Assembly (NCBI GenBank): GCA_023381695.1
Contig: JAMCQP010000034.1
Span: forward strand, 72,617-136,616
Direction of reading: 5' to 3'
Origin: Bacillota bacterium
GTDB lineage: Bacteria > Bacillota > UBA5301 > JAMCQP01
DNA: 64,000 nucleotides
Below the pieces are notes generated by a model. That model did not search any database and was not told where the DNA came from. It saw only the letters and a list, made by a program, of their open reading frames with translations. This document shows positions 19,170-53,650 of the stretch, one piece after another. A program made the position numbers and the translations under genes. The stretch's first letter is position 1; each line of letters begins with the position of its first letter.

Positions 19170-19263
19170 TCTTGCAGGAAATCGCTTTTCCGGGGAGAAT
19201 ACTTACTGGCGGTTTGCCCTTCTGCGGAAAAAGTTCGGCGATAGAGAATAAGGGGATAACGTG

Positions 19264-24206: not shown

Positions 24207-24419
24207 CGTTAAGAAGTGGCAACACAAGTTGCTTTCGTGCAACAGAATGGATCCCCCCTGGTCATGAAGGTTCTGGCTTTCTTGAGCTTATCTCGCGGCC
24301 TTGTTGAAAGTCTCCTGGGGTCGGGGTACAATTAAGGAAGGAGGCATGGTTTTTGCTTATGATTTTTAGGGGGATCTGACGTGCGCAGTATCGCGCATGA
24401 ATATTTGGGGGACCGGGAG

Positions 24420-25679
24420 ATGCGGATTATGAGGATGCTTCTCAAGTATGGGAGATCATACCGGGAGTTGACCATCGACGAGGCCAGGGTGAGCGAGATC
24501 ATCCGCGGAAAAGAAGGACCGGGGCTTGCGGACCCGGCCACCGCCGTAAAAAGGGCTCTAAAGGACCCCATAGGCGCCGGGCGGCTTTCCGAAATTGCCC
24601 GGGGAAAGAAGAATGTGGTGGTGGTGGTGAACGACATTACCCGCCCCACCCCCTACGGTTTCATGTTGCCCCCGCTTCTGGAGGAACTGAAAGAGGCGGG
24701 AACACCCGCCGAAACTATAAAATTTGTGGTCGCCACCGGCCTTCACCGCGGGCAGGCCCCCCGGGAGATGGAGGACCTTTACGGCCAGGAGGTGGTGGGG
24801 AGGTCCCGGTTCTTGAACCACGATTGTGACGGGGATCTGGTAAGCCTCGGGAAGCTCCGGTCCGGCAATGAGCTTTTTGTGAACCGGCAGGTGGCGGAAG
24901 CGGATCTGGTGGTCACCACCGGCGTGATTGGACCCCATTATTTCGCCGGTTTTTCCGGAGGGCGGAAATCAATCCTGCCCGGGGTGGCGGGCCGCCAGAC
25001 GGTCCAGAACAACCACTCCATGTTTGTGCGCACCGGGGTGTTAACCGGCAGGCTGGAAAAGAATCCGATCCATGAAGAGATGCTGGAGGCGGCCCGGCGG
25101 GTGGGGGTGGATTTCATCCTCAACGTGGTGACCAACACCTCCAGGGAGATCGTCGAGGTGGTGGCCGGGGATCTGGAGCAGGCCTGGCTGAAAGGGGTAA
25201 AGACCTTTACGGAGATGTACCGGGTTCCCATTCGCGCACGGTCGGATGTGGCCATCGCCAGCGCCGGAGGCTATCCCAAGGATATCAACCTTTACCAGGC
25301 GCAGAAGGCTCTGGAAAACGCCGCGGTGCTGGTGAGGGACGGTGGCACGGTGGTTTTGCTCGCCGAGTGCCCGGAAGGCTCGGGCGATGCGACCTTTGAG
25401 GAGTGGATGCGAGCCGCAAAGAATCCCGACGAGATCATCAACAGGTTGAAAGAGCGCTTTGTCATGGGCGGGCACAAGGCATATGCCTTTGCCACGGTCC
25501 TGCGCAAGAAAGAGGTGGTATTGATCTCCGGGCTGGGCAAAAGGTTTGCCGAAGAGATGCTCTTTACCCATGCGGGGAGCCTGGAGGAGGCTCTGGAATA
25601 CCTTCGCAAGAAGCACGGGGATGGTTACAGGGCGGCAATCTTGCCCGAAGCGGGCGCGGTGATGCCCGTGCTGGCCTAG
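24420..25679 (+). CDS. larA: Nickel-pincer-dependent lactate racemase family protein (LarA-like)
   Basis: VVVVNDITRPTP, ATGLHRG and PHYFAGFSGGRKSILPG are typical of the LarA N-terminal/catalytic domains. Confidence 0.85.
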   Translation: MRIMRMLLKYGRSYRELTIDEARVSEIIRGKEGPGLADPATAVKRALKDPIGAGRLSEIARGKKNVVVVVNDITRPTPYGFMLPPLLEELKEAGTPAETIKFVVATGLHRGQAPREMEDLYGQEVVGRSRFLNHDCDGDLVSLGKLRSGNELFVNRQVAEADLVVTTGVIGPHYFAGFSGGRKSILPGVAGRQTVQNNHSMFVRTGVLTGRLEKNPIHEEMLEAARRVGVDFILNVVTNTSREIVEVVAGDLEQAWLKGVKTFTEMYRVPIRARSDVAIASAGGYPKDINLYQAQKALENAAVLVRDGGTVVLLAECPEGSGDATFEEWMRAAKNPDEIINRLKERFVMGGHKAYAFATVLRKKEVVLISGLGKRFAEEMLFTHAGSLEEALEYLRKKHGDGYRAAILPEAGAVMPVLA

Positions 25680-27614: not shown

Positions 27615-27773
27615 TGTTTCGCTCTTATCCAGAGAGGTGGAGGGACTGGCCCGATGAAGCCCGGCAACCGGCGACCAACGTCGCAAGGTGCCAATTCCTG
27701 CAAGGCGCATGCCTTGGGAGATGAGAGAGGGAGCTTCGGGTTTACAGCCTCTTCCCTCGGAAGAGGCTTTTTA
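27615..27773 (+). promoter_or_regulatory. SAM-I (S-box) riboswitch with expression-platform terminator
   Basis: CTCTTATCCAGAGAGGTGGAGGGACTGGCCCGATGAAGCCCGGCAACC...AAGGTGCCAATTCCTGCA...GAGATGAGAG matches the S-box core. The terminator stem is 27746-27754 / 27760-27768, followed by T5. Confidence 0.9.
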
Positions 27774-27911
27774 TTCCGGCGAACCCCCTTCTCATCCCGG
27801 GAAGGGGGTTCGGCGTTACACCGGGAGGAGAAGAAAAGATGAGCAAGCAAGGATTCAGTGCGCAAGGTTTTGACACCAGGCGTTGAAAGTGGCGGTGAAG
27901 GAGGCGGTCTG

Positions 27912-29075
27912 ATGACCCGGGAAGTTTCGGCGAGGGAATTTTACACCTTTGCCCATCCCCCGGAGCGGTTTGCCCTGGAAAACGGGGAGGGACTGGGGCC
28001 GGTCACCGTGGCCTATGAAACTTACGGGAGGCTTAACAAGGCCGGTGATAACGCCATTGTGATCTGCCATGCCCTCACCGGCGATTCCCACGTGGCCAGC
28101 CACGGCGCCGGGGACACCGGTGAGGGGTGGTGGGAGAACTTTGTCGGCCCTGGCCGGCCGGTGGATACCCAGCGTTATTTCGTGGTCTGCGCCAACGTTC
28201 TGGGGGGATGCCAGGGCGCCACCGGCCCGTCCTCCACGAACCCGGCGACGGGCCTGCCCTACGCCATGACCTTCCCGACGGTGACCGTCAGGGATATGGT
28301 GCGGGTTCAGAAACGGTTGCTGGATCATCTGGGGGTAAAGCGCCTGTTGGCGGCCATCGGCGGTTCCATGGGAGGGATGCAGGTTCTGGAATGGGCCAGG
28401 AGTTACCCGGATTTTCTGGAGATGGCCATTCCAATTGCGTCGCCGGCCCGGCACTCCCCTCAGGCCATTGCGCTGGGGGAGGTGGGGCGGCAGGCGATCA
28501 TGCGGGATCCCAAATGGCGCAATGGGAATTATTACCCCGGAAAAGGCCCCACTGATGGACTGGCGGTGGCCAGGATGCTGGGGATGATCACCTATGAGAG
28601 CGAAGCGGCCATGCTCACCAAATTCGGCCGGAGGATGGATGTGGAGCCCACCGTCTTCGGGGGGAGTTTCCAGGTGGAAAGATACCTGGCCTACCAGGGC
28701 GAAAAGCTGGTGAAGCGCTTTGACGCCAACTCTTATCTGTACCTTTTGCGCGCCATGGATCTCTTCGATCTCACCGAGGGGCTCTTTTCCCTGGTGGAAG
28801 CCGTGCGAACCATCAAGGCGCGGGTGCTGGTGGTGGGCATCAGCTCCGACATCCTTTACCCCACCTGGCAGCAAAAGGAGCTGGTTGAGGCATTGCGCAA
28901 GGCCGGAGTGGTCGCTTTCTACCGGGAGGTCGATTCCATCTATGGACACGACGCTTTCCTGGTGGAACCCGAAAAGATGGCCCCCTGGATCGCCGATTTT
29001 TTGGGTGGCTACGGAAAAAATTTCCTTGCCGCAGGAATTTGGCCTGCCGCCGGTGAAAAGAAAGAGGTGATCTGA
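27912..29075 (+). CDS. metX: Homoserine O-acetyltransferase
   Basis: ICHALTGDSHVA, WW..GPG..DT.RYFVVCANVLGGCQGATGPSS and GGSMGGMQ match MetX. ATG lies 7 nt after GAAGGAGG. It sits downstream of the S-box. Confidence 0.9.
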   Translation: MTREVSAREFYTFAHPPERFALENGEGLGPVTVAYETYGRLNKAGDNAIVICHALTGDSHVASHGAGDTGEGWWENFVGPGRPVDTQRYFVVCANVLGGCQGATGPSSTNPATGLPYAMTFPTVTVRDMVRVQKRLLDHLGVKRLLAAIGGSMGGMQVLEWARSYPDFLEMAIPIASPARHSPQAIALGEVGRQAIMRDPKWRNGNYYPGKGPTDGLAVARMLGMITYESEAAMLTKFGRRMDVEPTVFGGSFQVERYLAYQGEKLVKRFDANSYLYLLRAMDLFDLTEGLFSLVEAVRTIKARVLVVGISSDILYPTWQQKELVEALRKAGVVAFYREVDSIYGHDAFLVEPEKMAPWIADFLGGYGKNFLAAGIWPAAGEKKEVI

Positions 29076-31076: not shown

Positions 31077-33128
31077 TCAGATTTGTACGCCGAGGAAGGT
31101 CAAGGCCTGATTCAAGATGTACCCCATCAGAAAGGCGAAAGGAAAGATGAAGAAGATCGCCTGCAGGGCAAACCGCCAGCCGCGCTCCTTGACCATCATG
31201 GAAAATTGAGCAATGCAGGGGGTAAAGAGCGTGAGGGTGACGGCGGCCACCACCACGGGAATGCCCGACAGCTGTCCGGAGGTTTGCAGGTCATAAAGGC
31301 CCGCGGCCCCATAGTCCCGGCGGAAGAACCCGAAGAGAATCGCCACCGCCGTCTCCTTGGGCAGGCCGAGGGATTGGACCACGGGTTCAAGCCCGGAGAT
31401 GATGAGCTGGAAGACGCCGGAGATCCGCCCGAGCCAGATGAAGACGCTGGCCAGGATGAAGAGAGGGAAGATCTCCATGAAGTACCATTCAATCCGCATA
31501 TAGGTCTTTCGCAGGACGTTGCCGATCTGGGGGATGCGTAATGGGGGAACCTCCATGTAAAAGCTCGGGGGTGATCCAGGAGTGAGCCTGGCGCTGAGCT
31601 GCCCGGCGACGATGAAGACGGCGCCCACCACCAGACCCCAGATGAGAAGGCCGGCCGGGTGGCCGGAGAGCATGGCGAAGATCAGCCCGAGCTGGGCGGA
31701 ACAGGGGATGGACAGGGCCAGAAGGAACGTGGCGATGATCCGTTCCCTGCGGGTTTCCAGGATCCGGGTGGACATGGTGGCCATGGTGCCGCAGCCCAGT
31801 CCCAGAACCAGCGGGATGGCCGCCCGGCCGTTTAAGCCCAGCTTTTTGAAGACCCGGTCCACCAGCATGGCCAGCCGCGGGAAGTAACCGCTGTCCTCCA
31901 GGACCGAAAAGAAGAGGAAGAAGGTTCCCACAATCGGGAAGACGATGGCGATGGCGTACCGGACGCCCAGGGTGAGAATCCCGTACTCTCCGGCAAAAAG
32001 CTCCCGCCAGACGGGCCAGGGGAGAAGATAAGCCACCGCCTTCTCAAAGACGGGGTTGAGAAAGCCGCTGAAAACTCTCTGTTCCAGGAGATCCACCAGG
32101 GTTCCCGCCCCGAAGACCCCCACAAACTGGTAGAGGCCGTAGTAAAGAACCACCAGCATGATGGGAACGCCGGTCACCGGATTCATGGTGAGCCGGCTTG
32201 CCCATTCGCCCAGGGAGATCCGGCCTTCTTTTCCGGCGCGGATGACCTGGCCGGCGATGCGGCGCGCATATTCTTGGCGCCGCATGGCGATCTGCAAGTT
32301 TACCGGTTCGGGCGAGTGCTTTTGGGCCTGGGCCAGAATCTCTTCGATCCGGGCGGCCCGGAGCCCCTCTTTCTGTTTGACCAGTTCCAGGATCTCCGGA
32401 TCTTCCTGGAGGAGGAGGAGGGCGACCGCCCGCCGGGAGATGGAATACTTGCCGCGCAACTGGTTGCCCACCGCCTCGAGGGCTCTTTCCAGCTCGGGCC
32501 CGTAGTCCACCGGGCGTTCTCCGGAGGCGGGACGTCCAGCGGGAGGCAGGCGCTCCACCGGCGACACGGCCCCGGCCGGGCGGGCGGCGGTGGCGATCAG
32601 CTTCTTCAACTCGCCCAGCCCCCGTCTGGTGGTGGAGACGGTGGCCACCGCCGGTATGCCGAGCTCCGTTTTCAGGCGGACGAGATCGAATTTAAGGTTG
32701 AGTTTTTCGGCCTCGTCCATCATATTCAGATCAAGGATCACGCTGAGCCCGGCTTCCAGTAGCTGCAGGGTCATGGGCAGCGAACGTTCCAGGTTTTTGG
32801 CGTCCATGGCATGAATTACCACCGACGGCCTTTCCGCCAGCAGGATGGAGCGCGCCACCCTCTCCTCTTCCGTGATGGGCAGGAGGGAGTACATTCCCGG
32901 CGTATCCACGATCTCGCAGGCCAGGCCATTGATCGAGGCAGTGCCGCGGGTAACCTCCACGGTGGTGCCGGGATAGTTGGAGACCATGGCGTACCTGCCG
33001 GTCAGGTTGCCGAACATGGCGCTCTTCCCCACGTTGGGGGTTCCCACCAGGGCGACTCTTGGCCTGGCGCCCTGGACAGATTCATGGGGGGGCGGTTCCC
33101 GCCGCCCGGATACGGCGATGTCTGGCAT
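31077..33128 (-). CDS. feoB: Ferrous iron transport protein B
   Basis: N-terminal G-domain (VALVGTPNVGKSAMFNxLTG-like, DTPG) followed by a large polytopic permease domain. Confidence 0.9.
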   Translation of the reverse strand: MPDIAVSGRREPPPHESVQGARPRVALVGTPNVGKSAMFGNLTGRYAMVSNYPGTTVEVTRGTASINGLACEIVDTPGMYSLLPITEEERVARSILLAERPSVVIHAMDAKNLERSLPMTLQLLEAGLSVILDLNMMDEAEKLNLKFDLVRLKTELGIPAVATVSTTRRGLGELKKLIATAARPAGAVSPVERLPPAGRPASGERPVDYGPELERALEAVGNQLRGKYSISRRAVALLLLQEDPEILELVKQKEGLRAARIEEILAQAQKHSPEPVNLQIAMRRQEYARRIAGQVIRAGKEGRISLGEWASRLTMNPVTGVPIMLVVLYYGLYQFVGVFGAGTLVDLLEQRVFSGFLNPVFEKAVAYLLPWPVWRELFAGEYGILTLGVRYAIAIVFPIVGTFFLFFSVLEDSGYFPRLAMLVDRVFKKLGLNGRAAIPLVLGLGCGTMATMSTRILETRRERIIATFLLALSIPCSAQLGLIFAMLSGHPAGLLIWGLVVGAVFIVAGQLSARLTPGSPPSFYMEVPPLRIPQIGNVLRKTYMRIEWYFMEIFPLFILASVFIWLGRISGVFQLIISGLEPVVQSLGLPKETAVAILFGFFRRDYGAAGLYDLQTSGQLSGIPVVVAAVTLTLFTPCIAQFSMMVKERGWRFALQAIFFIFPFAFLMGYILNQALTFLGVQI

Positions 33129-43209: not shown

Positions 43210-43563
43210 TTACAAACCTTTTACGGACATCTCTCCTTCAGGAGACATGGCATGGCAGGAGAGGCAGTTGCCGCCCAGCTTCGGCCCGAAGACCTGGCTG
43301 TTGAGGTGGATCGGGTGGAGCACCTTCTTGAACGCGAACTTGCCCTCTTTGTGGCAGCCCATGCAGACCTTCACATCATTGGCCTTGATTGCCGGATGGC
43401 CCTTGATCTTCTGGATCTCGGCGCTCAGGCTGTAATCCTTGTCGCCCTCAACCTTGTGGCAGCTGGCGCAGCCCTGGGGGAACTTATCCTCGGCCAAAGC
43501 CACGGTTCCCAGCACCAGCGCGGTGCCAAAGGCCAATAGCAGAATAAACGCCACTTTCTTCAT
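43210..43563 (-). CDS. Small secreted trihaem c-type cytochrome
   Basis: Signal peptide MKKVAFILLLAFGTALVLGTVALA, and three CXXCH motifs (CASCH, CMGCH, CLSCH) in about 95 mature residues. Confidence 0.85.
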   Translation of the reverse strand: MKKVAFILLLAFGTALVLGTVALAEDKFPQGCASCHKVEGDKDYSLSAEIQKIKGHPAIKANDVKVCMGCHKEGKFAFKKVLHPIHLNSQVFGPKLGGNCLSCHAMSPEGEMSVKGL

Positions 43564-43785
43564 GTAATTTGTCACCTCCCTTCACAAATGCTGGTAATAC
43601 TTCGACGGCCAGAGAAAAATTCCTGGTGATCTGGTGGTAACTTTGAAGGATTTTGGAAAGAAGATCTCTGAAAAAGATCTCCGATGAGACGTATATCGGA
43701 ACCCCTCCGATGAACCTTAAGTGGGGAAACGCGGTGTTTTGCCCAGGCTGTCTCTTGCCAGGCTAATTCCGTTTCACGGGAAGGA

Positions 43786-43814
43786 GCTTGACGGAGGGAG
43801 GGTTTTATCGTACA
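43786..43814 (+). promoter_or_regulatory. Possible promoter (TTGACG N17 TACACT) of the cytochrome operon
   Basis: The hexamers and spacing were read directly from the sequence. The -10 element is weak. Confidence 0.3.
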
Positions 43815-43909
43815 CTTTAAGTAGTGAAATTGTGAACAATTGCGGGCGCCGAAGGGCGGCCCTTTCCGGTAAATGATGACGACCGGTTTTTGCCCTCGGA
43901 GGGAAATGA

Positions 43910-44917
43910 ATGCCAAAAAGCGCAAGATGGTTTGCTCTGGTGTTGATGTTGCTTGTGGCGTTGATCATGGAAACGCGTCCGGGAATGGGGGCGAACCCCG
44001 CTCCGGTGTGGCCATCGCCTCCCGCCAGGGCCCGAATCCAGTTTGTCAAGGTGATCTCCTCGCTGAAAGACCTCGGTGGGAAACCCTCCCTGTGGGAGCG
44101 ATTTCTAAACCTGGTGGCGGGGGAGGCTCCGGAGCGACTGGTTACGCCGCACGGCCTGGCGGTTTTTGAAAACCGGCTGTACATAGCGGATTCGGACGGA
44201 CATGCCGTCTGGGAATTTGATATGGCCAGGCCCGCGGTGCACCGGTGGGATATCGGGGAACATTTCCTGACCCCCATTGGGATTGCCGTGGATCAGAAGG
44301 GCAAGGTCTTTGTCTCGGATTCGGGCAGAGGTTCGGTCTTTGTCCTGTCCCCGGAAGGGCGGCTCTTGAAGGCCATTCGCGGGGAAAACCTCTTTGTGCG
44401 GCCGACGGGCCTGGCGGTGGACAGGGCGCGCCAGAAACTCTATGTGGTGGACACCGCCGGCAACCGGATTACCGTGCTGGACACGGAGAGCTACAAGCTG
44501 GTGACGATCTTCGGCAGGCGCGGGGACAAGCCCGGCGAATTCAACTATCCGGTCCATGCCTTTGTCCGCAATGACCGGCTTTATGTGAGCGACTCCCTCA
44601 ACTTCCGCGTGCAGGTCTTCACCCTGGATGGCCGGTTTGAAAGTTCTTTCGGCAGGATGGGGGACGGTTCCGGGGACTTTGCCCGGCCCAAGGGCGTGGC
44701 CGTGGACAGCGCGGGACACATCTACGTGGTGGATGCATTATTTGACCGGGTGCAGATCTTTGACCGGGATGGGCGGCTCTTGCTGCCGTTTGGGGAGTCC
44801 GGGCAAGGGCTGGGGGAATTCTGGCTCCCCACCGGGATCTATATTGACGAGAAGGACCGAATATTTGTGGCGGACTCTTCCAACCGGCGGGTGGAAGTAT
44901 TCCAATACCTGCAGTAG
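43910..44917 (+). CDS. Secreted NHL-repeat beta-propeller protein
   Basis: Signal peptide MPKSARWFALVLMLLVAL. Six repeats of the type P.G.AVD..G..YV.D..N.R..VF are present (e.g. NFRVQVF, FDRVQIF, NRRVEVF). Confidence 0.85.
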   Translation: MPKSARWFALVLMLLVALIMETRPGMGANPAPVWPSPPARARIQFVKVISSLKDLGGKPSLWERFLNLVAGEAPERLVTPHGLAVFENRLYIADSDGHAVWEFDMARPAVHRWDIGEHFLTPIGIAVDQKGKVFVSDSGRGSVFVLSPEGRLLKAIRGENLFVRPTGLAVDRARQKLYVVDTAGNRITVLDTESYKLVTIFGRRGDKPGEFNYPVHAFVRNDRLYVSDSLNFRVQVFTLDGRFESSFGRMGDGSGDFARPKGVAVDSAGHIYVVDALFDRVQIFDRDGRLLLPFGESGQGLGEFWLPTGIYIDEKDRIFVADSSNRRVEVFQYLQ

Positions 44918-44964
44918 GCCGGCGATCCGTAAGAAAGACGACGGTTTGAACCGAAGCCTGGAAG

Positions 44965-46821
44965 ATGGGAATTCACAGGATAAGCCAGGGACAACGGGGG
45001 GCGCGGGTTGTGGGCAGGAGGTCTTCAACAGCATTAATCGCAGGTTTAATCGGATTCAGTCTGTTCTTTGGGGCGACGGGCAGCGCGGTGGCGGGGATCT
45101 CCGCCACCAAACACAATCTTTCCGTAACGGGGCCTGGAACGGTGAAAGCGACCTCGGAAACGCAAATTTGCGTTTTTTGCCATACGCCGCATAACGCCTC
45201 GCCGGCCACGCCGCTATGGAACCATGCTCAGTCGGCGCAGACCTACACCCTGTACAACAGCACGACCATGGCGTCCACGGTGGGCCAGCCGGATGGAGTT
45301 TCGAAGCTATGCTTAAGCTGCCATGACGGCACGGTGGCCGTCGGCGCCGTTTCCACCGGCATGATCGGCATGGCCGGGGTGGATGCGCAGGGCAGGCTCC
45401 TGGCCGGCAGCCCGGCCAATTTCACCATAAACCTCGCCAACGACCATCCTATTTCATTTACGCCCGGGGTGAACCCGGAGCTTTCGACGCCGTCTTCCAC
45501 CGACGCCGTACAGTACAAGAGCGGCAAGCTCCAGTGCACTTCTTGCCACAACCCGCATGACAATACGAACGGTTACTTTCTGGTAAAACCCAACAGCGAC
45601 GGTACATACGGCTCCCAGATCTGCCTGAGTTGCCATGAGAGAAAGGTTGGCTGGCCCACCGGCATTCACCGGAACACCACCGACGCCACCAAATTGTATA
45701 ACGGCAAGACGGTGGCGCAGAACGCCTGCGCCTCATGCCACAAAGTTCACGGGGCGCCGCAGGCCGTTCGTCTGCTCAGGGGAGACGACGCCACCGGCGC
45801 TTTTACGGAAGAAGCGGTCTGCTACAACTGTCATGACGGTGCTCCCGCCTCCGACAAGAAGACGGAGTTTGCCAGGGCATACGCTCATCCGGTGGCGAGC
45901 ACGACCGGGGTGCACGACGCGGTGGAGAGCTACAAGTTCGGCGATCCGAAGAAGACCGCGCGGCATGTGGAGTGCGCCGACTGCCACGACCCCCATGCGG
46001 CGTCCAACGCCTTGCCTCCGCTGGCATCCGGCGCTCCCGGCGGGGGGCTGGAGAATGTAAACGGCGTGGGGGTGAATTACACCGGCGCGCCGGCCTGGGG
46101 CTCCCCGGCCTTTGTGCAGAAATCCCAGGTGACCAGGGAGTTTGAGCTCTGCTTCAAGTGCCATTCGTCGTACAACTACGGTTCCACGCCGCCCGCCTCC
46201 CCTTCCCTGGGCCAGGCGCAGACGGACCCGGCGGTGGAATTCAACCCGGCCAACGCCTCATACCATAATGTTGGCGTGCCGGGCGCCACGACCAGGGCCA
46301 GCGGAAAAGGCACATATCTTCTTGGCATGAATTCGAGCACCATTTTGCTCTGCTCAAGTTGCCACGGTTCCAATACCACGGTGGTCGCCAACTCGGCGGC
46401 GCCCACGGCGGTGCACGGTTCGGCCAATGCGTTCATTCTCAAGGCGCCGTTTTCAACGGCCACCGGGAGGTCAACCTCCACCGATAACGACCTCTGTTTC
46501 AAGTGCCATGACCGGTACACCTACGGGGGATCAAGCAATAGGACTACGAATTCGGGGTTCAGCAACTCCGGGGAAGGGAACCTGCACAACCTTGGCGGCA
46601 TGGTGGGATCAAAGCACCGGGTGGCCTGTGTGAGCTGTCATTCCGCGATTCCGCATGGTTACCAACGGGCGCGGCTTCTGGTTAAACACGATGAGCCGGC
46701 GCCTTATAATGGCGGCTCAAAGCTGGTGCTCTATATTTCAGATTCGCAAGCGGCAACCAGGTCGGGCAATTGGCGACAGAGCGATGCAGCCTGCTGGATA
46801 AACGGCCGGGCCGATCACTGA
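44965..46821 (+). CDS. Multihaem c-type cytochrome, 11 CXXCH motifs (doubled-CXXCH type)
   Basis: I count CVFCH, CLSCH, CTSCH, CLSCH, CASCH, CYNCH, CADCH, CFKCH, CSSCH, CFKCH and CVSCH. The N-terminus is basic then hydrophobic, as in a signal/anchor (RRSSTALIAGLIGFSLFFGATGSAVA). Confidence 0.9.
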   Translation: MGIHRISQGQRGARVVGRRSSTALIAGLIGFSLFFGATGSAVAGISATKHNLSVTGPGTVKATSETQICVFCHTPHNASPATPLWNHAQSAQTYTLYNSTTMASTVGQPDGVSKLCLSCHDGTVAVGAVSTGMIGMAGVDAQGRLLAGSPANFTINLANDHPISFTPGVNPELSTPSSTDAVQYKSGKLQCTSCHNPHDNTNGYFLVKPNSDGTYGSQICLSCHERKVGWPTGIHRNTTDATKLYNGKTVAQNACASCHKVHGAPQAVRLLRGDDATGAFTEEAVCYNCHDGAPASDKKTEFARAYAHPVASTTGVHDAVESYKFGDPKKTARHVECADCHDPHAASNALPPLASGAPGGGLENVNGVGVNYTGAPAWGSPAFVQKSQVTREFELCFKCHSSYNYGSTPPASPSLGQAQTDPAVEFNPANASYHNVGVPGATTRASGKGTYLLGMNSSTILLCSSCHGSNTTVVANSAAPTAVHGSANAFILKAPFSTATGRSTSTDNDLCFKCHDRYTYGGSSNRTTNSGFSNSGEGNLHNLGGMVGSKHRVACVSCHSAIPHGYQRARLLVKHDEPAPYNGGSKLVLYISDSQAATRSGNWRQSDAACWINGRADH

Positions 46822-46859
46822 AAGGATCCGATGGCCGCATTGGCCACCGAAAGGGTAGG

Positions 46860-48290
46860 ATGTTTAGTTTTTTGAAATCCGTCAAACTGGCCATAGTGCT
46901 TATCGCCCTTTTGACGGCCCTGATCGTGGCCGGGATGGTGATTCCCCAGGCCAACCTGAAACCGGCGCTTTATGCCCAGTGGTGGGCAAGCCACCCCGGA
47001 GTGGCCGTGGTTGTCCAACGGCTGGGCCTGGACCATACCTTTACTTCCTGGTGGTTTCTGGCGGTGGTGGGGCTGTTCTTTGTGAACACCCTGGCCTGCA
47101 CCGTGGATCAGGCGGTTAATGCCTGGCGGCTGGCGTGGTCCAGCCGGTCCGGCGGGCTGCAACCGGCAGGTGCGGGAACTTCCGCCGGTTATCCGGAGGA
47201 AATTGCAACTTCGGTGCTGCATGGCCGCCGCTATGTGGTGCGTGGTTGGGATTACCCGGCAGAGGGAACCTGGGTGTTTCTTGCCGAGAAGAACAGGGCC
47301 GGGTATTGGGGTTCGGTGATCTTTCATGCGGGGCTGCTTCTGATCATCCTGGGCGTGGTTTACGGCAGCCTGGGCAGGTTTGAGGGGGTCATGCTGCTCA
47401 CCGAGGGTGAGCGCCGCGTGGAGGGGCACGGGGAGTATATTCATCTGGAGGAGGGGCCGGCCTTTGCGGAAGCGCATCCGGGGTTTGAAGTGGGCCTCGA
47501 GCGGGTCAGACACTTTCCCCCGACCCAAAAGACTCCGGCCGGGATGACCAGCGGTCTGACCCTGGACGGAAAACCTTTTCAGCTTGGCCAGCAGGCACCG
47601 CTGGTTTACCGGGGATTCAGGATCTACCAGGACCGTTTTGGCGATGCGGTTTCTCTTGAAAGTGATCCAGGACGGGGTGCGCCGCTTCAGTTTACGGCGG
47701 GGCTTCTCGATCAAATTACGACCGATGGTAGTAAAGTCTCCAGGGGGAGCCTGGTTATTCCGGGCACGGCTGTCCGGGCGCGCCTGACCCTATATGCTGA
47801 TGCCGCCTTGAAAGATGGAAAGCTTTTTGCCAGCTCTCTGGTGCTGAAGCGTCCCTTGCTGAGGGTGATCCTTGAAGGCAGCACCGGGGCCAGGCTCTTT
47901 CAGGGCGATGTGAAAGCCGGGCAGGGAATTCACGCCGCGGGATTGAAATTAACCTTTACGGGCGCGAGCTACTGGCTGGCGCTCCGGATCAGGCGGGATC
48001 CCGGGCAGGACATGATCTTTGCCGGATTCGGCGTGGTATTGCTCGGGTTGATTCTTCTCTACTTCCTGATCCCCAGGAAGATATGGGTGGAGATAAAGCC
48101 GGGCTCCGGCCCTGATTGCCGGGATGGGTGGCAGGTGAGTGTTCGGGGGAGTGCACCCCGCCATTCCGACCTTCTGGAAGCTGAGCTGGAAGAGATTCGC
48201 CGTAAACTGGCGGAGACGCCGGGTGTTTATAGCGCAGACGTCGCAAAGGGAGAGTTGCGCTTTGCCGCCAGAGGAGGTCATTGGACTTGA
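46860..48290 (+). CDS. resB: Cytochrome c biogenesis protein ResB/CcsB (System II)
   Basis: MFSFLKSVKLAIVLIALLTALIVAGMVIPQ is a ResB-type N-terminus. The protein has a large extracytoplasmic loop and a C-terminal TM. The ATG at 46860 is preferred to the ORF-track start at 46770. Confidence 0.85.
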   Translation: MFSFLKSVKLAIVLIALLTALIVAGMVIPQANLKPALYAQWWASHPGVAVVVQRLGLDHTFTSWWFLAVVGLFFVNTLACTVDQAVNAWRLAWSSRSGGLQPAGAGTSAGYPEEIATSVLHGRRYVVRGWDYPAEGTWVFLAEKNRAGYWGSVIFHAGLLLIILGVVYGSLGRFEGVMLLTEGERRVEGHGEYIHLEEGPAFAEAHPGFEVGLERVRHFPPTQKTPAGMTSGLTLDGKPFQLGQQAPLVYRGFRIYQDRFGDAVSLESDPGRGAPLQFTAGLLDQITTDGSKVSRGSLVIPGTAVRARLTLYADAALKDGKLFASSLVLKRPLLRVILEGSTGARLFQGDVKAGQGIHAAGLKLTFTGASYWLALRIRRDPGQDMIFAGFGVVLLGLILLYFLIPRKIWVEIKPGSGPDCRDGWQVSVRGSAPRHSDLLEAELEEIRRKLAETPGVYSADVAKGELRFAARGGHWT

Positions 48291-49204
48291 AGCTGCAGAT
48301 CATTTTGCTCTGGGCCGCGGTGGGGATCTACGTGGCAAGCTCATTTCTGTATATCGCCGGGCTCGTCTTCAAGAGACCGAAATTCGTGAAAAGCGCCGGT
48401 CTGGCGGTCTGGCTTGGCCTGGTGCCGCACAGCGTCTCCATCGTTCTTCGCTGGATCCAGGCGGGTCATGGACCATATGTGGACTTTTACGAGGTGGCCG
48501 GTTCCGATACCTGGATGGCGCTGGTGCTCTTTCTGATCGCGCGCTACAAATTTCCGAAGCTGGATCCCGTCGGGGCCGTAATCCTGCCTGTTTCATTCCT
48601 CTTTCTAGGGCTTGGCGTCATGAACTCCCCGGAGATCACCCAGGTGCCGGATTCGGTCCGCACCTTCTGGCTGGTGGTCCATATCACGTTTGCCAAGCTA
48701 GCTTATGGCTCTTTTCTGATCGGGACAAGCCTGGCGGCGTTCCAACTGCTGAAGGAACGGGGACTGGCGAAACAGGAGGCGGCGCCGGGGGTAGCGGCAT
48801 CGACAATTCCGGTGGAAGGAATGGCGGGAACCGCGGTGGGAAAACGCGGCGGGTTCCTCGACAGCCTGCCGGAGCCGGAGGGGTTGGACCAGAGCAGCTA
48901 CCGCTTCCTGGCGGTGGGGTTCTTCTTCCTGAGCATCATGATCCTGGCGGGGTCCATCTGGGCCAACAACATCTGGGGAAGCTACTGGAACTGGGACCCC
49001 ATGGAGACCTGGTCGCTCATCTCCTGGCTGATTTACGGGGCTTACCTGCACCTGCGAAGCACCTTCGGATGGCGGGGAAGAAGGGCGTCCTGGTTTGCGA
49101 TCTTCGCCATGGCGGTCCTCTTGTTCGCTCTTTTCGGGGTGGAGTATGTGTACAGGACCGGGCACGTTCTGTATCTCAACCGGCCGTTCCCGTGGGACAA
49201 GTAG
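48281..49204 (+). CDS. ccsA: Cytochrome c biogenesis protein CcsA/ResC (System II haem lyase subunit)
   Basis: Trp-rich haem-handling motif WGSYWNWDPMETW plus conserved His-containing helices. The TTG start overlaps the resB stop by 10 nt. Confidence 0.9.
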   Translation: MDLKLQIILLWAAVGIYVASSFLYIAGLVFKRPKFVKSAGLAVWLGLVPHSVSIVLRWIQAGHGPYVDFYEVAGSDTWMALVLFLIARYKFPKLDPVGAVILPVSFLFLGLGVMNSPEITQVPDSVRTFWLVVHITFAKLAYGSFLIGTSLAAFQLLKERGLAKQEAAPGVAASTIPVEGMAGTAVGKRGGFLDSLPEPEGLDQSSYRFLAVGFFFLSIMILAGSIWANNIWGSYWNWDPMETWSLISWLIYGAYLHLRSTFGWRGRRASWFAIFAMAVLLFALFGVEYVYRTGHVLYLNRPFPWDK

Positions 49205-49237
49205 AGCAGTCATGGCCGTTAGGATGGAGGTACGCAC

Positions 49238-50731
49238 TTGAAGAAGGTTTTGCTGCTCACCCCTCCCTATCACGCGGGGGTGGTGGAAGCCGCCGGCCGG
49301 TGGCCGAACATCGCTTTGGTGTACATCGCCGGGCATCTCCGGCGAGCAGGCCATCTTCCGGTAATCTACGACGCCATGACCAAGGGCGATGACCTCGAGG
49401 AGATTCGCCGCCGGATCGCGGCGGAAAAGCCGGACTGCGTGGCGACCACCGCTTATACCGCGTCCATCAATGCGGCACTGGACGTGCTCAAGGCGGCCAA
49501 GGAGATCGACCCTCGCATCGTCACGGTGATCGGGGGGGTCCACGCCAATTTTTGCCATGAGGAGCTTTTGAAGGCCAACCCATGCCTGGATTTCGTGGTG
49601 CGCGGGGAGGGCGAGGAGACCTTTCCGGAGCTTCTGGCGGCACTTGAAGCCGGGGGCGACCTGCCGAGAGTGCGGGGCATCGCCTTTCGCCGGGGCCTTT
49701 TGAGCGGCTCTGGCAAAAATACACCCGAAGAAAGCGGTCCTCCTGCCGTCGTCGCTACTCCCCCCCGCCCGTTCATCCACGACCTGGACAGCCTGGTCCC
49801 CGCCTGGGATCTGGTGGAGTGGGACGACTACACCATGTTCGTCATCCCCGGCTCCAGGCTGGCGGTGGTAAATTCCACCCGGGGGTGCAACCACGATTGC
49901 AGTTTTTGCTCCCAGCAGAAGTTCTGGGAGCGGACCTACCGGGAACGCAGCCCGGAAAATTTCGTCGCGGAATTGATCCACCTCAACCGGACCTACGGCG
50001 TGGACGTGGCCATGCTCTCGGACGAATACCCCACCCGCAACCGGCGGCGCTGGGAAAAGATCCTGGATCTGATCATCACCAGCGGCCTGAAGGTGTATCT
50101 GCTCCTGGAGACGCGGGTGGAGGACATCCTGCGCGATGAGGCGATCTTGCCGAAGTACAGGCAGGCGGGAGTGTTGCACATCTATGTGGGGGTGGAGGCC
50201 ACCGACCAGGAGACCCTGGACCGCTTTAACAAACGGATCAAGTGCGAGGAATCCGCCCGGGCCATCCAGCTCATTAACGCCCATGGGATGATCTCGGAGT
50301 GCTCCTTTGTCCTTGGCCTGCCGGAAGAGACGCAGGAGTCGGTCCAGCGAACTTTGGCCCTGGCCAAGCGCTACGATCCCGACTTCGCCCATTTTCTGCA
50401 TATCGCGCCGTGGCCTTACGCCGACATGTATGGCGAACTGAAAGATTACGTCATAACCGGGGATTATTCCAAATACAACTTTGTGGAGCCGGTGGTCAAG
50501 CCTGCCGGGATGAGCGTGGAGGAGATCGGCCAGGCCCTGATCGACTGCTACCGCGAGTTTTACATGGACAAGGTCCGGCACTTCCACCGGATACTGGATC
50601 CTTTCAAGCGCGAGTACCTCTTGCTCTCCATGCAGGTGATGATGCGCAACTCCTTCCTCAAAAAACACCTGGGCGGGATGGGCAAGATTCCGGAAGAGGT
50701 CCGGCGGTATCTGAACGAGCCCGCCGTATAA
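49238..50731 (+). CDS. Cobalamin-binding-domain (class B) radical SAM enzyme
   Basis: N-terminal B12-binding-like Rossmann region (KVLLLTPP..IALVYIAGHLRRAGH..VVRGEGE) and the radical SAM motif CNHDCSFC. TTG lies 7 nt after GGATGGAGG. Confidence 0.85.
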   Translation: MKKVLLLTPPYHAGVVEAAGRWPNIALVYIAGHLRRAGHLPVIYDAMTKGDDLEEIRRRIAAEKPDCVATTAYTASINAALDVLKAAKEIDPRIVTVIGGVHANFCHEELLKANPCLDFVVRGEGEETFPELLAALEAGGDLPRVRGIAFRRGLLSGSGKNTPEESGPPAVVATPPRPFIHDLDSLVPAWDLVEWDDYTMFVIPGSRLAVVNSTRGCNHDCSFCSQQKFWERTYRERSPENFVAELIHLNRTYGVDVAMLSDEYPTRNRRRWEKILDLIITSGLKVYLLLETRVEDILRDEAILPKYRQAGVLHIYVGVEATDQETLDRFNKRIKCEESARAIQLINAHGMISECSFVLGLPEETQESVQRTLALAKRYDPDFAHFLHIAPWPYADMYGELKDYVITGDYSKYNFVEPVVKPAGMSVEEIGQALIDCYREFYMDKVRHFHRILDPFKREYLLLSMQVMMRNSFLKKHLGGMGKIPEEVRRYLNEPAV

Positions 50732-50748
50732 ATAGATCGTCACCGGCA

Positions 50749-50783
50749 AATCCTTCTTGTTTGGAAGGATTTATCTTTTTTTC
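50749..50783 (+). terminator. Rho-independent terminator closing the cytochrome operon
   Basis: Stem aaatccttc / gaaggattt, loop ttgtttg, followed by a T7 run at 50777-50783. Confidence 0.8.
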
Positions 50784-50860: not shown

Positions 50861-52279
50861 ATGCTGAGCAAGGAAGAGGTCGGCCAGTTATTAAGCAGGG
50901 AATCGGTCCAGAAGGCGTTATATACCGCGTTGCGGAACGGCGGTAACTTCGCCGAGGTTTTCGTGGAGAAGAAACTCTCCAACAGCATCTCCCTGGAAGA
51001 AGGGCGGATTGAGCGGGTCAAAACGGGATTTGACCTGGGGGCCGGGATCCGGGTGGTCAACGGCGAAGGTGTCTCCTACGTCTTCACGGATGACCTGGCG
51101 GAGGAGGCACTGTTGGAAGCGGCGCGACTGGCGGGGAGCGCGGCCAGGAACGCCACCCACCGCACCGCCGTGCTGGACCTCCGGCCACACCGCAACCCTT
51201 CGCCGCACCGGATCTCGATCCGGCCGGAGACGGTGGCCAAGGCCGGGAAGGTGGAACTGGTCATGCGCGCGGATCGGGCGGCGCGGGCGGTGGATCCCCA
51301 GATCAAACAGGTGATGGTGGGCTACGCCGATTCGGTGCAGAAGGTGATCATCGCCAATTCCGAGGGGTTATGGGCGGAAGACGAGCGGGTGCACACCCGG
51401 ATGGCGGTGACCGCCGTGGCCGCCCGGGGGGAGGTGATTCAGACCGGGTATGAGGCGCCGGGCAAACACATGGGCCTGGAGCTCTTCGACCATTTTCCGC
51501 CGGAGGAGATCGGCCGGACAGCCGGCAGGCGGGCTGTTACCATGCTCAATGCCCGTCCGGCGCCGTCCGGCAAGATGGCGGTGGTGATCAGCAACGGCTT
51601 CGGCGGGGCGATGTTTCACGAGGCCAGCGGCCACGGGCTGGAGGCCGATTTTATCCAGAAGGGGTCGTCGGTCTTCGCCGGGCGCATCGGGGAGCAGGTG
51701 GCCAGCCCGCTGGTCACGGCCATTGACGACGGAACGCTGGTCAATGAATGGGGTTCCTTCGTGGTGGATGACGAGGGGGCGCCGGCGCAGAGGACGGTGC
51801 TCATCGAAAATGGTGTTCTCAAGAGCTATATGTACGACCGCAAGGCGGCGGTGAAGGACAAGCGCCCTTCCACCGGCAACGGGCGGCGGGAGTCTTACCA
51901 GGATCTCCCCCTGCCGCGCATGACCAACACCTTTATCGCACCAGGGGAGTCCACGCCCGAGGAGATCATCGCCGCGACCCCGGACGGGCTTTTTGCGAAG
52001 GTGTTGAGCGGCGGCGAGGTCAACCCGGCGACCGGAGATTTTGTCTTTGTGGTCTCCGAGGGGTACCTGATCAAGGACGGCAAGATCACGGAGCCGGTGC
52101 GCGGCGCCACGCTGATCGGCAACGGGCCGGAGTCGCTGCAGAAGATCGATATGGTGGGGAACGATCTGGTCTTTTCCGCAGGCATGTGCGGCAAAGGCGG
52201 CCAGAGCATCCCGGTGTCCGTGGGCCAGCCGACGCTGCGGATGGCCGAACTTACCGTCGGCGGCACCCAGAGAGAGTGA
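50861..52279 (+). CDS. tldD: TldD metalloprotease
   Basis: The HEASGHGLEADF (HExxxH) motif and a C-terminal GxC..GG region typical of TldD. Confidence 0.9.
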   Translation: MLSKEEVGQLLSRESVQKALYTALRNGGNFAEVFVEKKLSNSISLEEGRIERVKTGFDLGAGIRVVNGEGVSYVFTDDLAEEALLEAARLAGSAARNATHRTAVLDLRPHRNPSPHRISIRPETVAKAGKVELVMRADRAARAVDPQIKQVMVGYADSVQKVIIANSEGLWAEDERVHTRMAVTAVAARGEVIQTGYEAPGKHMGLELFDHFPPEEIGRTAGRRAVTMLNARPAPSGKMAVVISNGFGGAMFHEASGHGLEADFIQKGSSVFAGRIGEQVASPLVTAIDDGTLVNEWGSFVVDDEGAPAQRTVLIENGVLKSYMYDRKAAVKDKRPSTGNGRRESYQDLPLPRMTNTFIAPGESTPEEIIAATPDGLFAKVLSGGEVNPATGDFVFVVSEGYLIKDGKITEPVRGATLIGNGPESLQKIDMVGNDLVFSAGMCGKGGQSIPVSVGQPTLRMAELTVGGTQRE

Positions 52280-52297
52280 AATGGAGGAGAGACGTCG

Positions 52298-53650
52298 ATG
52301 AGCGCCAGGCTTGATTTGAAGGCGATGCTGGATGCTGCGCAGGAGGCCGGGGCCGAGGAGGCCGAGGTCTTCTTTCAGGACTCGGAAAACACCACCATCA
52401 AGGTTTACCACGGCCAGGTGGATTCCCTGGTCACGGCGAAGGCCAAGGGGGTGGGAATCCGCACCTTTCGCAACCACCAGGTGGGCTATGCCTATACTTC
52501 CGATTTCAGCCGGGAGTCGATCCGGGCGGTGATCCAGGCCTCCGTGGAGAACGCCGGGGTGGGGACGCCGGACGAATTTCAGGGCCTGCCGGTCACCATG
52601 GGCAATTACCCGCATCCTCCCCTTTTTAACGAAACCCTGGCGGAGACGCCGGTTGAGGAGAAGATCGAACTGGCTTTGCGCATGGAAAAGGTGGCTCTGG
52701 AGTATAGCGACAAGGTTCGTTCGGTGGATGAGGTGGAGTACGCGGACCAGATCGGCAATGTTACCCTGATGAACTCCCGTGGGCTGGAGGGGTCTTACAA
52801 ACGCGGCACCTGCTACGCGAGTGTGTTTGTACTGGCCCAGGAGGGGGATGACGTCCAGACCGGCTATTCCTTCACCTATGGGCGGAGCCTTCAGGAGCTC
52901 AAGCCGGTGGATGCCGCGCGGGACGCGGCGGCCAACGCGGTAACCTTGCTCGGGGCGCGCCAGGCCAGGGGCCAGGAGGCCCCGGTGGTCTTCCGGCCCG
53001 AGGTGGGCGCGATGCTGATGGCCATCTTCGCCGAGGCGCTCACCGCGGATGCGGTTCAGAAGGGACGGTCGCTCTTTGCCGGCAAGCTGGGCCAGATGGT
53101 GGCCTCGGATCAAGTCTCGATCATCGACGACGGGCTGATGCCCGACGGGCTGGCCACGGCGCCCTTCGATGGGGAAGGAGTGCCTTCCCGGCGGACGGAG
53201 TTGATTGAGAATGGGAAGCTCCTGTCCTTCATGTACGACAGTTACACGGCCCGCAAGGGCAAAGCCAAGTCCACCGGCAACGCCTCGCGTTCCTCGTACC
53301 GTTCCACGCCGGTCCCGGCTCCCAACAACTTCTTCATGGTGCCGGGCGGCGTCAAGGTGGAGGAGCTCATCGGCGGGGTGAAGTCCGGCTTTTATGTGAT
53401 GGAGGTCTCCGGCCTGGGCTCCGGCGGGGCCAACCCCATCTCCGGGGACTTCTCCGTGGGGGCGACCGGGCGCTGGATCCGGGACGGCCGGTTCGCCGAG
53501 CCGGTGCGCGAGGTGACCATCGCGGGCAACCTGCTCAACATGCTGGGCGATGTGGACGCGGTCGCCGACGACCTGAAATTTGTGCCCATGATGGGAGCCT
53601 TTGGCTCGCCCACCTTCCGGGTGAGGAAGATGGCCATCAGCGGGGCGTGA
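52298..53650 (+). CDS. pmbA: PmbA/TldE partner of TldD
   Basis: TldD/PmbA fold without the HExxxH motif. It has C-terminal SGDFSVGATG and GSPTFRV. It sits 18 nt after tldD. Confidence 0.85.
   Translation: MSARLDLKAMLDAAQEAGAEEAEVFFQDSENTTIKVYHGQVDSLVTAKAKGVGIRTFRNHQVGYAYTSDFSRESIRAVIQASVENAGVGTPDEFQGLPVTMGNYPHPPLFNETLAETPVEEKIELALRMEKVALEYSDKVRSVDEVEYADQIGNVTLMNSRGLEGSYKRGTCYASVFVLAQEGDDVQTGYSFTYGRSLQELKPVDAARDAAANAVTLLGARQARGQEAPVVFRPEVGAMLMAIFAEALTADAVQKGRSLFAGKLGQMVASDQVSIIDDGLMPDGLATAPFDGEGVPSRRTELIENGKLLSFMYDSYTARKGKAKSTGNASRSSYRSTPVPAPNNFFMVPGGVKVEELIGGVKSGFYVMEVSGLGSGGANPISGDFSVGATGRWIRDGRFAEPVREVTIAGNLLNMLGDVDAVADDLKFVPMMGAFGSPTFRVRKMAISGA

Follow-up and report, generated by a model that had tools for sequence, protein, structure and literature searches.

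Association of a BchE-related radical SAM enzyme family with System II cytochrome c maturation genes, including those of a putative extracellular electron-transfer module in a Bacillota bacterium

The window analysed here, 64 kb of contig JAMCQP010000034.1 from an anaerobic Bacillota bacterium, carries at 43.2-50.8 kb what its gene content indicates to be an extracellular electron-transfer module of the OmcE/Uet type. On the plus strand, genes for a secreted NHL β-propeller, an 11-haem c-type cytochrome and the two subunits of the System II cytochrome c synthase, ResB and CcsA, are followed by a gene for a class B radical S-adenosylmethionine (SAM) enzyme, whilst a gene for a trihaem cytochrome diverges from them on the minus strand (Table 1). 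The core of such a module is already known as uet; the new component is the enzyme, putatively one that tailors a cofactor. It is related to BchE, the chlorophyll ring-E cyclase, and in anaerobes of at least eight phyla its gene is non-randomly associated with ccsA/resB and multihaem genes, which raises the possibility that it acts on haem destined for these cytochromes.

Organisation of the locus

The six genes, with the strands and lengths reported in a preliminary description made from the sequence alone, were all reproduced by the list of open reading frames (ORFs) and their translations. Script counts returned the same three CXXCH motifs in the minus-strand signal-peptide protein of 117 residues, exactly 11 in the protein of 618 residues, and identical plus-strand junctions of 47, 38, -10 and 33 nt, with the start of ccsA overlapping the end of resB by 10 nt; the identities proposed for the products (NHL, multihaem, ResB, CcsA and B12 radical SAM proteins) were upheld by Pfam and NCBIfam profile searches. 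The radical SAM gene has a TTG start, with GGAGG 8 nt upstream. Beyond its 3' end lies the sole combination of hairpin and U-run found outside coding sequence, a shape absent from the three internal gaps of the plus-strand operon. The earlier statement that this is the only strong terminator is thus right as to the number; 'strong' was generous, because the stem is AU-rich, with three G-C pairs (centroid structure -11.6 kcal/mol). Purely on account of the gene spacing, co-transcription of the five plus-strand genes is plausible. An Rfam scan detected no element in the divergent intergenic region and no riboswitch, for cobalamin or otherwise, near the operon, its sole match being a SAM riboswitch at 27.6 kb.

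The trihaem protein has the motifs CASCH, CMGCH and CLSCH downstream of a signal-peptide-like N-terminus, and matches Paired_CXXCH_1 (29.9 bits), with sub-threshold Pfam matches to Cytochrome_C7 and NrfB-like families. The NHL protein matches Pfam NHL in five stretches (119.5 bits) and DUF5128, a six-bladed propeller (77.6 bits); six repeats of the form 'P.G.A.D...YV.D..N.R..VF' are legible in its translation. The synthase genes fit System II, a ResB-family membrane protein being followed by a CcsA with the WWD motif WGSYWNWDPMETW that passes TIGR03144 (196.7 bits against a cut-off of 187.6) and matches PF01578 (145.9 bits). Histidines lie on both sides of this motif, with roles that may be assigned by analogy only. 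Homology indicates that ResB/CcsA would export haem and attach it to the cytochromes of the module outside the membrane. No ccdA or resA thiol-reduction gene is present among the genes at 41.7-53.6 kb, and these could sit elsewhere in the genome; within the 64-kb window there is also no second ccsBA and no hem operon, only a lone nirJ1. The closest locus in another genome, from a Syntrophothermus metagenome-assembled genome (MAG; L001), has the same nine genes in identical order, including the trihaem gene in the same place and orientation, with 83% identity.

Table 1. Coordinates of the features of the window locus, and examples of related loci and genes from the genome survey (locus numbers prefixed L)
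Feature	Position	Strand	Remarks
Secreted trihaem c-type cytochrome	43210..43563	-	117 aa from ATG 43563; 121 aa from GTG 43575
Divergent intergenic region	43576..43909		Sigma-70-like TTGACG-17-TACACT at 43788-43816 (+), from a consensus scan only
Secreted six-bladed NHL β-propeller, 335 aa	43910..44917	+	Pfam NHL and DUF5128
11-haem c-type cytochrome, 618 aa	44965..46821	+	11 CXXCH; Paired_CXXCH_1 103.9 bits
ResB (CcsB), System II synthase subunit	46860..48290	+	476 aa from ATG 46860; PF05140 164.5 bits
CcsA (ResC), System II synthase subunit, 307 aa	48281..49204	+	TIGR03144, PF01578, WWD motif WGSYWNWDPMETW
Class B radical SAM enzyme, unnamed BchE sister family, 497 aa	49238..50731	+	B12-binding and Radical_SAM; CNHDCSFC at residues 217-224
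Intrinsic-terminator-like hairpin and T-rich tail	50748..50782	+	Hairpin 50748-50772, 10-bp stem, 5-nt loop, seven-T run
Loci with ccsA followed by the radical SAM gene	L001, L004, L006, L007, L008, L016, L027, L030, L036, L050		Same strand
Loci with a haem operon			L004 Thermoanaerobacteraceae MAG; L063 Clostridiales MAG; L083 Carboxydocella thermautotrophica complete genome
c3, examples	L074:7379-7771; L057:3686-4084; L083:9664-9981
LuxE-like enzyme, examples	P0363; L081:8312-11482; L002, L003, L005, L010
Short radical SAM paralogue, examples	L074:6009-7382; L059:2425-3795; L089:6708-7997; L091:6664-8004
Larger block, examples	L074:446-5788; L059:4200-9853; L062:231-5647; L014:4068-9721

The radical SAM enzyme belongs to a sister family of BchE

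An N-terminal B12-binding domain (PF02310, 101.8 bits, cut-off 32.1) and a radical SAM core (PF04055, 84.5 bits, cut-off 29.5) with the cluster motif C217-x3-C221-x2-C224 place the enzyme in class B. BchE itself is the anaerobic cyclase by which Mg-protoporphyrin IX monomethyl ester becomes protochlorophyllide (enzyme assay in PMC13598231). The best curated family is BchE (TIGR02026), at 427.6 bits (E 7e-128), which does not reach the equivalog cut-off of 481.35 bits; the next characterised family is HpnR, at 149 bits (E 1.6e-43). On the same BchE model, genuine BchE proteins score 769.5 (P0371) and 760.9 bits (P0373), whilst relatives of the window protein score 422-447 bits in seven other loci and 382-405 bits among cluster representatives. 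Since these scores cluster, with a clear gap to genuine BchE, the family is on sequence grounds a coherent, unnamed sister group of BchE that has no profile model of its own.

The window protein aligns with two BchE proteins from photosynthesis clusters over 96% of its length, at 38.6% identity. Defining conserved positions as those kept in at least 95% of 82 family members gave 101, of which 73 are identical in both genuine BchE sequences; these include GEGEE, RGCxxxCxFCSQxKFW and His102. Sixteen positions are fixed differently from BchE, for example W272/F, E273/V, E291/N, Y316/S and H385/N. Hence the two share their two-domain build and cluster motif, along with His102, for which a role as cobalt ligand has been considered. 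They differ in that the window enzyme lacks the C-terminal tail of about 60 residues and its host is a non-phototroph, and across the family the neighbours are ccs and haem genes, whereas genuine bchE is found in contexts such as bchL-bchM-puhABCE-bchE-hemN-bchJ or ppsR-bchE-bchJ. No bch or puh gene was present among the window ORFs scanned, which took in every ORF flanking the module. A phylogeny of chlorophyll genes mentions BchE-related genes closer to non-photosynthetic homologues, only to discard them (PMC3595025), and homologues of this sister family are not discussed in recent BchE biochemistry (e.g. PMC10114771).

Linkage to ccs and multihaem cytochrome genes

The family is rare: a search of one genome from each of 185,579 species, using two peptide motifs of the enzyme, matched 247 relatives. 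The loci of the best 80 of these, retrieved via the radical SAM motifs only, were taken with 10-kb flanks, and neighbours were identified by tblastn with the window proteins and by all-against-all ORF clustering. Of the 80 loci, 40 have a gene of the CcsA family within 10 kb, and 36 of these have it within 3 kb; ResB occurs in 30, an 11-haem homologue in 29, an NHL protein beside such a homologue in 15, and a small membrane protein, here called c3, in 40. Counting only unfused enzymes of ordinary length, CcsA is nearby in 39/61. The CcsA-positive loci come from Bacillota, Actinomycetota, Bacteroidota, Ignavibacteria, Lentisphaerota, Neomarinimicrobiota, Nitrospirota and Geotalea/a deltaproteobacterium, and the order of genes around the enzyme varies by lineage. 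In ten of them ccsA is followed on the same strand by the radical SAM gene after 0-93 nt (Table 1); in L033 and L046, too, CcsA is encoded no more than 93 nt away, but downstream and on the other strand.

The preliminary description had suggested comparing genomes for linkage of the radical SAM gene to resB/ccsA or multihaem cytochromes, and the comparison reveals a non-random linkage across phyla. That the gene stands at the operon's end by chance or by hitch-hiking, without functional meaning, is scarcely credible. It is indeed the last gene of the window operon, where c3 and a second partner, a LuxE-like enzyme, are missing, but the proportion of loci with CcsA within 10 kb compares with a chance expectation of about 2% per locus, itself a rough estimate for a 21-kb stretch that assumes a 3-Mb genome and at most three copies of ccsA, and the linkage extends over eight phyla with rearranged gene orders. 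It is because of this spread over phyla and gene arrangements that a functional link to ccs is argued. The conserved link is to ccs, haem-synthesis genes and the small membrane protein, rather than to this NHL/11-haem pair; of the earlier proposal that the radical SAM gene is tied to these cytochromes, the linkage to ccs and multihaem genes stands, and a strict tie to this particular pair does not.

Nineteen of the 80 loci form a derived clade, mostly of Nitrospirota, in which the enzyme is fused to an SRPBCC domain. The neighbours in this clade, of which representative sequences were read by eye, appear to be regulators, a YedF-like protein and Psr-like subunits, and provided no lead. The fusion is of interest in that the SRPBCC/polyketide-cyclase domain (PF10604, PF03364) has a fold binding lipophilic ligands, which includes quinone binders, and so might signify that the enzyme modifies, for instance by methylation, a membrane lipid or respiratory quinone for the same low-potential chain, with the ccs linkage reflecting shared respiration. 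The usual partner being a small membrane protein would fit this, as would the position of the hopanoid enzymes HpnR and HpnJ as second-best characterised relatives, and the ORFs upstream of the Actinomycetota genes, which were assigned, by reading sequences, as UbiE/MenG-, UbiA- and UbiD-type menaquinone genes. We nevertheless regard such a role as distinctly unlikely: the BchE match is around 280 bits above that to any lipid enzyme, most conserved positions are common to BchE, and it is haem operons and ccs genes that recur as neighbours, not genes of isoprenoid or quinone metabolism. The actinobacterial mqn-hemL-ccs neighbourhood presumably occurs in genomes without the enzyme, which also counts against it.

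Partner genes

The commonest immediate neighbour of the enzyme, within 300 bp in 33 of the 80 loci, is c3, an unannotated three-helix membrane protein of 110-135 residues. It has no Pfam family, and all 240 relatives found are annotated as 'hypothetical'; three members have a precomputed label, a weak one, of CopD (PF05425). Its predicted structure is a confident three-helix bundle, for which Foldseek returned only generic helical bundles, with no PDB fold match. His13-Asp14, Gly68, Arg71, His96 and Gly106 are invariant, and Lys95 nearly so; from the charge distribution these residues would cluster at the outer face of the membrane. Searching outward from c3 led back to ccs (ResB/CcsA), multihaem and NHL genes in all three contexts examined, in one of which an S-adenosylmethionine synthase gene adjoins.

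In four genomes, c3 and the radical SAM gene are preceded by a gene for a LuxE-like adenylate-forming enzyme (PF04443), which is fused to the radical SAM protein in one cluster representative (P0363, 975 aa). A shorter B12 radical SAM paralogue of around 430-457 aa, which is distant in sequence and reaches only 80 bits with the BchE model, is often found across c3 from the long form; in L091 it takes the place of the long form after ccsA.

Both radical SAM genes and c3 are found in Nitrospirota and Geotalea inside a larger block (Table 1). This further encodes an ABC ATPase with two permeases resembling FtsX, an iron permease of fused FTR1/FtrD-like type, and divergent relatives of ResB and CcsA; it contains no cytochrome gene.

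Proximity to haem-synthesis genes

In three genomes the enzyme is encoded between ResB/CcsA pairs and a sirC-hemA-hemC-cobA/hemD-hemB-nirJ2(-hemL) operon (Table 1), and hemL adjoins it in Actinomycetota and some Nitrospirota loci. The NirJ2 (AhbD-like) protein of the Thermoanaerobacteraceae locus passes its own model at 628 bits. The window itself has a stand-alone gene for NirJ1, an AhbC-like radical SAM/SPASM protein (19261-20460, plus strand; 710 bits on TIGR04054, whose cut-off is 650), located 30 kb upstream of the operon and with a HAD hydrolase and a chemotaxis receptor as neighbours, which suggests that this organism makes haem by the siroheme-dependent route.

This proximity admits a simpler role for the enzyme, as an ordinary oxygen-independent step towards haem b, such as propionate-to-vinyl decarboxylation or porphyrinogen oxidation, in which case adjacency to ccs would reflect co-regulation and there would be no modified cofactor. 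The direct adjacency to sirC-hemA-hemC-hemD-hemB-nirJ2-hemL in L004, L063 and L083, and to hemL elsewhere, speaks for this, as does the chemistry: the first step of BchE is hydrogen abstraction at the propionate β-carbon, the position which HemN and AhbD also attack (PMC5972617; PMC10114771). However, the presence of NirJ2 in L004 and of NirJ1 in the window means that the siroheme route already has its radical SAM enzymes, which argues that the BchE-like enzyme is an addition to them, not a replacement. In addition, the family is sparsely distributed, its gene looks accessory in Geotalea, and no canonical haem step needs a dedicated membrane partner, let alone the adenylating partner sometimes seen. 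An ordinary haem b step is, on this evidence, unlikely.

The Carboxydocella thermautotrophica locus (CP028514, 1666169-1687623) has three ResB/CcsA pairs within 10 kb, around c3, the radical SAM gene and a multihaem protein with fn3/Big_5 domains; upstream of the pairs is a gene for a cytochrome of 2,792 or more residues, and directly downstream is the siroheme-route hem operon. The CcsA proteins of the three pairs share 40, 38 and 36% identity with that of the window, values too close to one another to single out an orthologue.

The 11-haem cytochrome and its relation to OmcE and uet

A script search of the 11-haem protein, for which the NCBI gene call (P0241) starts 15 codons later to give 603 aa, found no CX3-4CH or CXXCK variants. 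Residues 27-225 (nt 45043-45639) constitute an OmcE-like tetrahaem unit, a relationship beyond what the preliminary description had seen: phmmer aligned them with residues 8-231 of the chain in PDB entry 7TFS, which is OmcE (PMC12954529), at E 2.8e-29, covering the whole of OmcE and bringing all four haem motifs, plus several motifs around them, into register. OmcE was also the sole PDB match of the predicted structure in Foldseek (E 1.1e-5); the model is of moderate quality, and poor in the OmcE-like region, so it is the sequence match that carries weight. The remaining 390 or so residues have seven more CXXCH motifs and no PDB fold match by Foldseek. Hence the protein is homologous to the Geobacter sulfurreducens cytochrome in sequence and fold across four haem sites but, with 618 residues and 11 motifs, is not a small subunit like the tetrahaem OmcE, of about 200 residues, which polymerises into nanowires by histidine ligation between subunits. 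OmcE clusters have further multihaem cytochromes and β-propeller lipoproteins, beside resB/ccsB (10.1101/2025.10.22.684050, preprint); the Bacillota locus differs from them in having no β-barrel gene.

The undecahaem electron transfer (uet) cluster of Candidatus Tenderia electrophaga and the Tenderiales (10.1101/2022.05.06.490989) also resembles the module, in that it too comprises, in one block, an 11-CXXCH cytochrome, one or more adjacent NHL propellers and trihaem cytochromes, and dedicated ccsA/ccsB. It differs in the addition of an outer-membrane β-barrel (UetC), a prolyl isomerase (UetB) and a cupredoxin (UetF), none of which has a counterpart at 41.7-53.6 kb of the window, in the lack of a radical SAM gene, and in its hosts, which are oxygen-respiring Gammaproteobacteria. 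Homologues of the 11-haem protein are widespread, with lengths of 550-700 residues, in Sulfuricella, Sulfurimicrobium, Elusimicrobia, Planctomycetota, Kiritimatiellia and a Methanocella MAG, and are regularly preceded by an NHL gene, including in L086-L089. As its relatives come from Sulfuricella, Sulfurimicrobium and Polarisedimenticolaceae, it is plausible that the window protein is orthologous to UetJ, the likeness resting on the published composition of the cluster. A Sulfuricella-like contig (L086) has the order NHL-undecahaem-ResB-CcsA with no radical SAM gene, which is the uet core; the earlier proposal, an extracytoplasmic electron-transfer module complete in itself and equipped with System II genes, is borne out by the recurrence of this core there and in the published cluster.

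An alignment of 49 members of the 11-haem family, drawn from many phyla, has as its invariant features the 11 motifs, some dozen other histidines and, at the extreme C-terminus, a cysteine and a histidine. In the window protein this last pair is Cys610 and His618 (nt 46792-46818), forming C-WINGRAD-H at the very end of the chain. Their spacing varies among members (CH, CX2CH, CX3CH, CX4CH and C-x(1-7)-H). Most of the homologues examined that are linked to the radical SAM gene have C-x(1-4)-H, L033 and a single copy in each of L046 and L051 being among the exceptions; in contexts without the enzyme, the Sulfuricella-like homologue has adjacent CH, those of Elusimicrobia CX4CH and those of Kiritimatiellia CX3CH. 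This pattern may simply follow phylogeny. It can be speculated that the pair serves as a twelfth haem site of non-canonical type or as a ligand between subunits, and that this explains the ccs pair travelling with the gene. Wolinella succinogenes has dedicated System II isoenzymes, NrfI for CXXCK and CcsA1 for CX15CH sites; it resembles the window in encoding a ccs set beside the cytochrome it matures, and the non-canonical Cys/His of the 11-haem family could be such a special site, but maturation in Wolinella involves no radical SAM enzyme.

The invariant yet variably spaced Cys/His pair might also be thought to mark a target of the enzyme, were the latter to modify a protein before its export, either the apocytochrome or the NHL protein, as a cobalamin-dependent C-methyltransferase of the sort that acts in the maturation of ribosomally synthesised and post-translationally modified peptides or of methyl-coenzyme M reductase. 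Class B enzymes that methylate peptides and proteins do exist, and the window enzyme matches ApyD (144.6 bits), TIGR03975 (105 bits) and TIGR04014 (63 bits). These matches are far weaker than that to BchE, Pfam detected no peptide-recognition domain, and the enzyme is found without a cytochrome neighbour just as the cytochrome family is found without the enzyme; we therefore consider protein modification very unlikely.

Proposed role of the enzyme

The role that we favour, with roughly an even chance of being correct as judged from sequence comparisons, is that the enzyme acts on a haem-type tetrapyrrole before its export and attachment by ResB/CcsA, as an accessory step in the supply of cofactor for cytochrome c. 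It would act in the cytoplasm, or at the inner membrane face, on haem b or an immediate precursor, using 5'-deoxyadenosyl-radical chemistry with cobalamin either for a BchE-like attack on a propionate side chain or for methyl transfer; ResB/CcsA would afterwards export the resulting tetrapyrrole and attach it at CXXCH sites, so that the enzyme would provide an accessory, oxygen-independent step of cofactor supply.

The preliminary description had observed that no class B radical SAM enzyme has a described role in cytochrome c biogenesis, and had proposed an undescribed modification such as C-methylation. The former is in agreement with the open literature and bioRxiv, in which there is no account of the c3 family or of System II loci with a cobalamin radical SAM enzyme, subscription-only papers being outside this search. 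C-methylation does not necessarily follow: BchE-like oxidation of a porphyrin side chain is favoured instead, because BchE is the nearest characterised relative, and this closeness combined with the adenylating partner makes simple methylation less likely than radical chemistry at a carboxylate side chain. The LuxE-like partner would fit chemistry in which such a side chain is activated, as with BchM and BchE. It had also been envisaged that the enzyme might fall into a characterised family with no conserved synteny to ccs genes; the nearest characterised enzyme, BchE, does act on a tetrapyrrole, yet the synteny with ccs is conserved. A more specific proposal, that the BchE sister enzyme, with c3 and sometimes a propionate-adenylating enzyme, makes an unknown haem derivative with an oxidised, cyclised or methylated side chain for System II multihaem cytochromes, and that BchE descended from this family, is tentative and on balance doubtful.

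Several observations weigh against the enzyme serving cytochrome c cofactor supply. The solved OmcE structure shows ordinary haem c, and an identity of 38% to BchE leaves the class of substrate unfixed. Neighbouring loci are phylogenetically non-independent, so the counts of linkage exceed the number of independent events, and ccs genes are almost never near the SRPBCC-fused enzymes. The LuxE-c3-radical SAM trios of L081 and L082 have no cytochrome or ccs gene within 10 kb; c3 and the LuxE-like gene are missing from both L001 and the window, as judged by tblastn and profile hidden Markov models with the window translated in six frames. Finally, contigs of Sulfuricella-like, Elusimicrobia and Kiritimatiellia origin, and the Tenderiales, possess the NHL/undecahaem/ccsBA core but not the enzyme, which is therefore not needed for the 11-haem cytochrome family as such.

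System II maturation is considered to be well understood, without any cofactor-tailoring enzyme. If the proposed role is correct, the enzyme would contribute to cytochrome biogenesis in anaerobes either a haem derivative or an oxygen-free step not known before, with a bearing on electron delivery to minerals, electrodes and syntrophic partners by multihaem proteins, OmcE-like ones included. For the 'BchE homologues of non-phototrophs', long ignored, there is now a concrete context, in which the origin of the chlorophyll ring-E cyclase becomes testable, and cultured hosts of the enzyme, suited to genetics and mass spectrometry, are available in Carboxydocella thermautotrophica, Thermincola ferriacetica and Geotalea toluenoxydans.

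Other genes in the window

The genes flanking the module have housekeeping functions, with phosphofructokinase upstream and TldD/PmbA downstream. The TldD/PmbA peptidase pair (50861-53650, plus strand) lies directly past the operon terminator, and occupies the same position after the L001 operon. It was rejected as part of the system, being beyond the terminator and adjacent in only two of the 80 loci (L001 and L075), and is probably unrelated to the operon, since a PmbA/TldD-family gene near the radical SAM gene recurs in only the one further locus, L075.

The SAM (S-box) riboswitch (27622-27727, plus strand; 93.3 bits) is directly upstream of the homoserine O-acetyltransferase gene metX (27858-29075). 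Amongst the ordinary genes of the wider context are those for a fused protein of major facilitator superfamily and spermidine synthase type (16496-18136, minus strand), a LarA-family nickel-dependent malate racemase (24381-25679, plus strand; 549.8 bits) and FeoB (31077-33128, minus strand).

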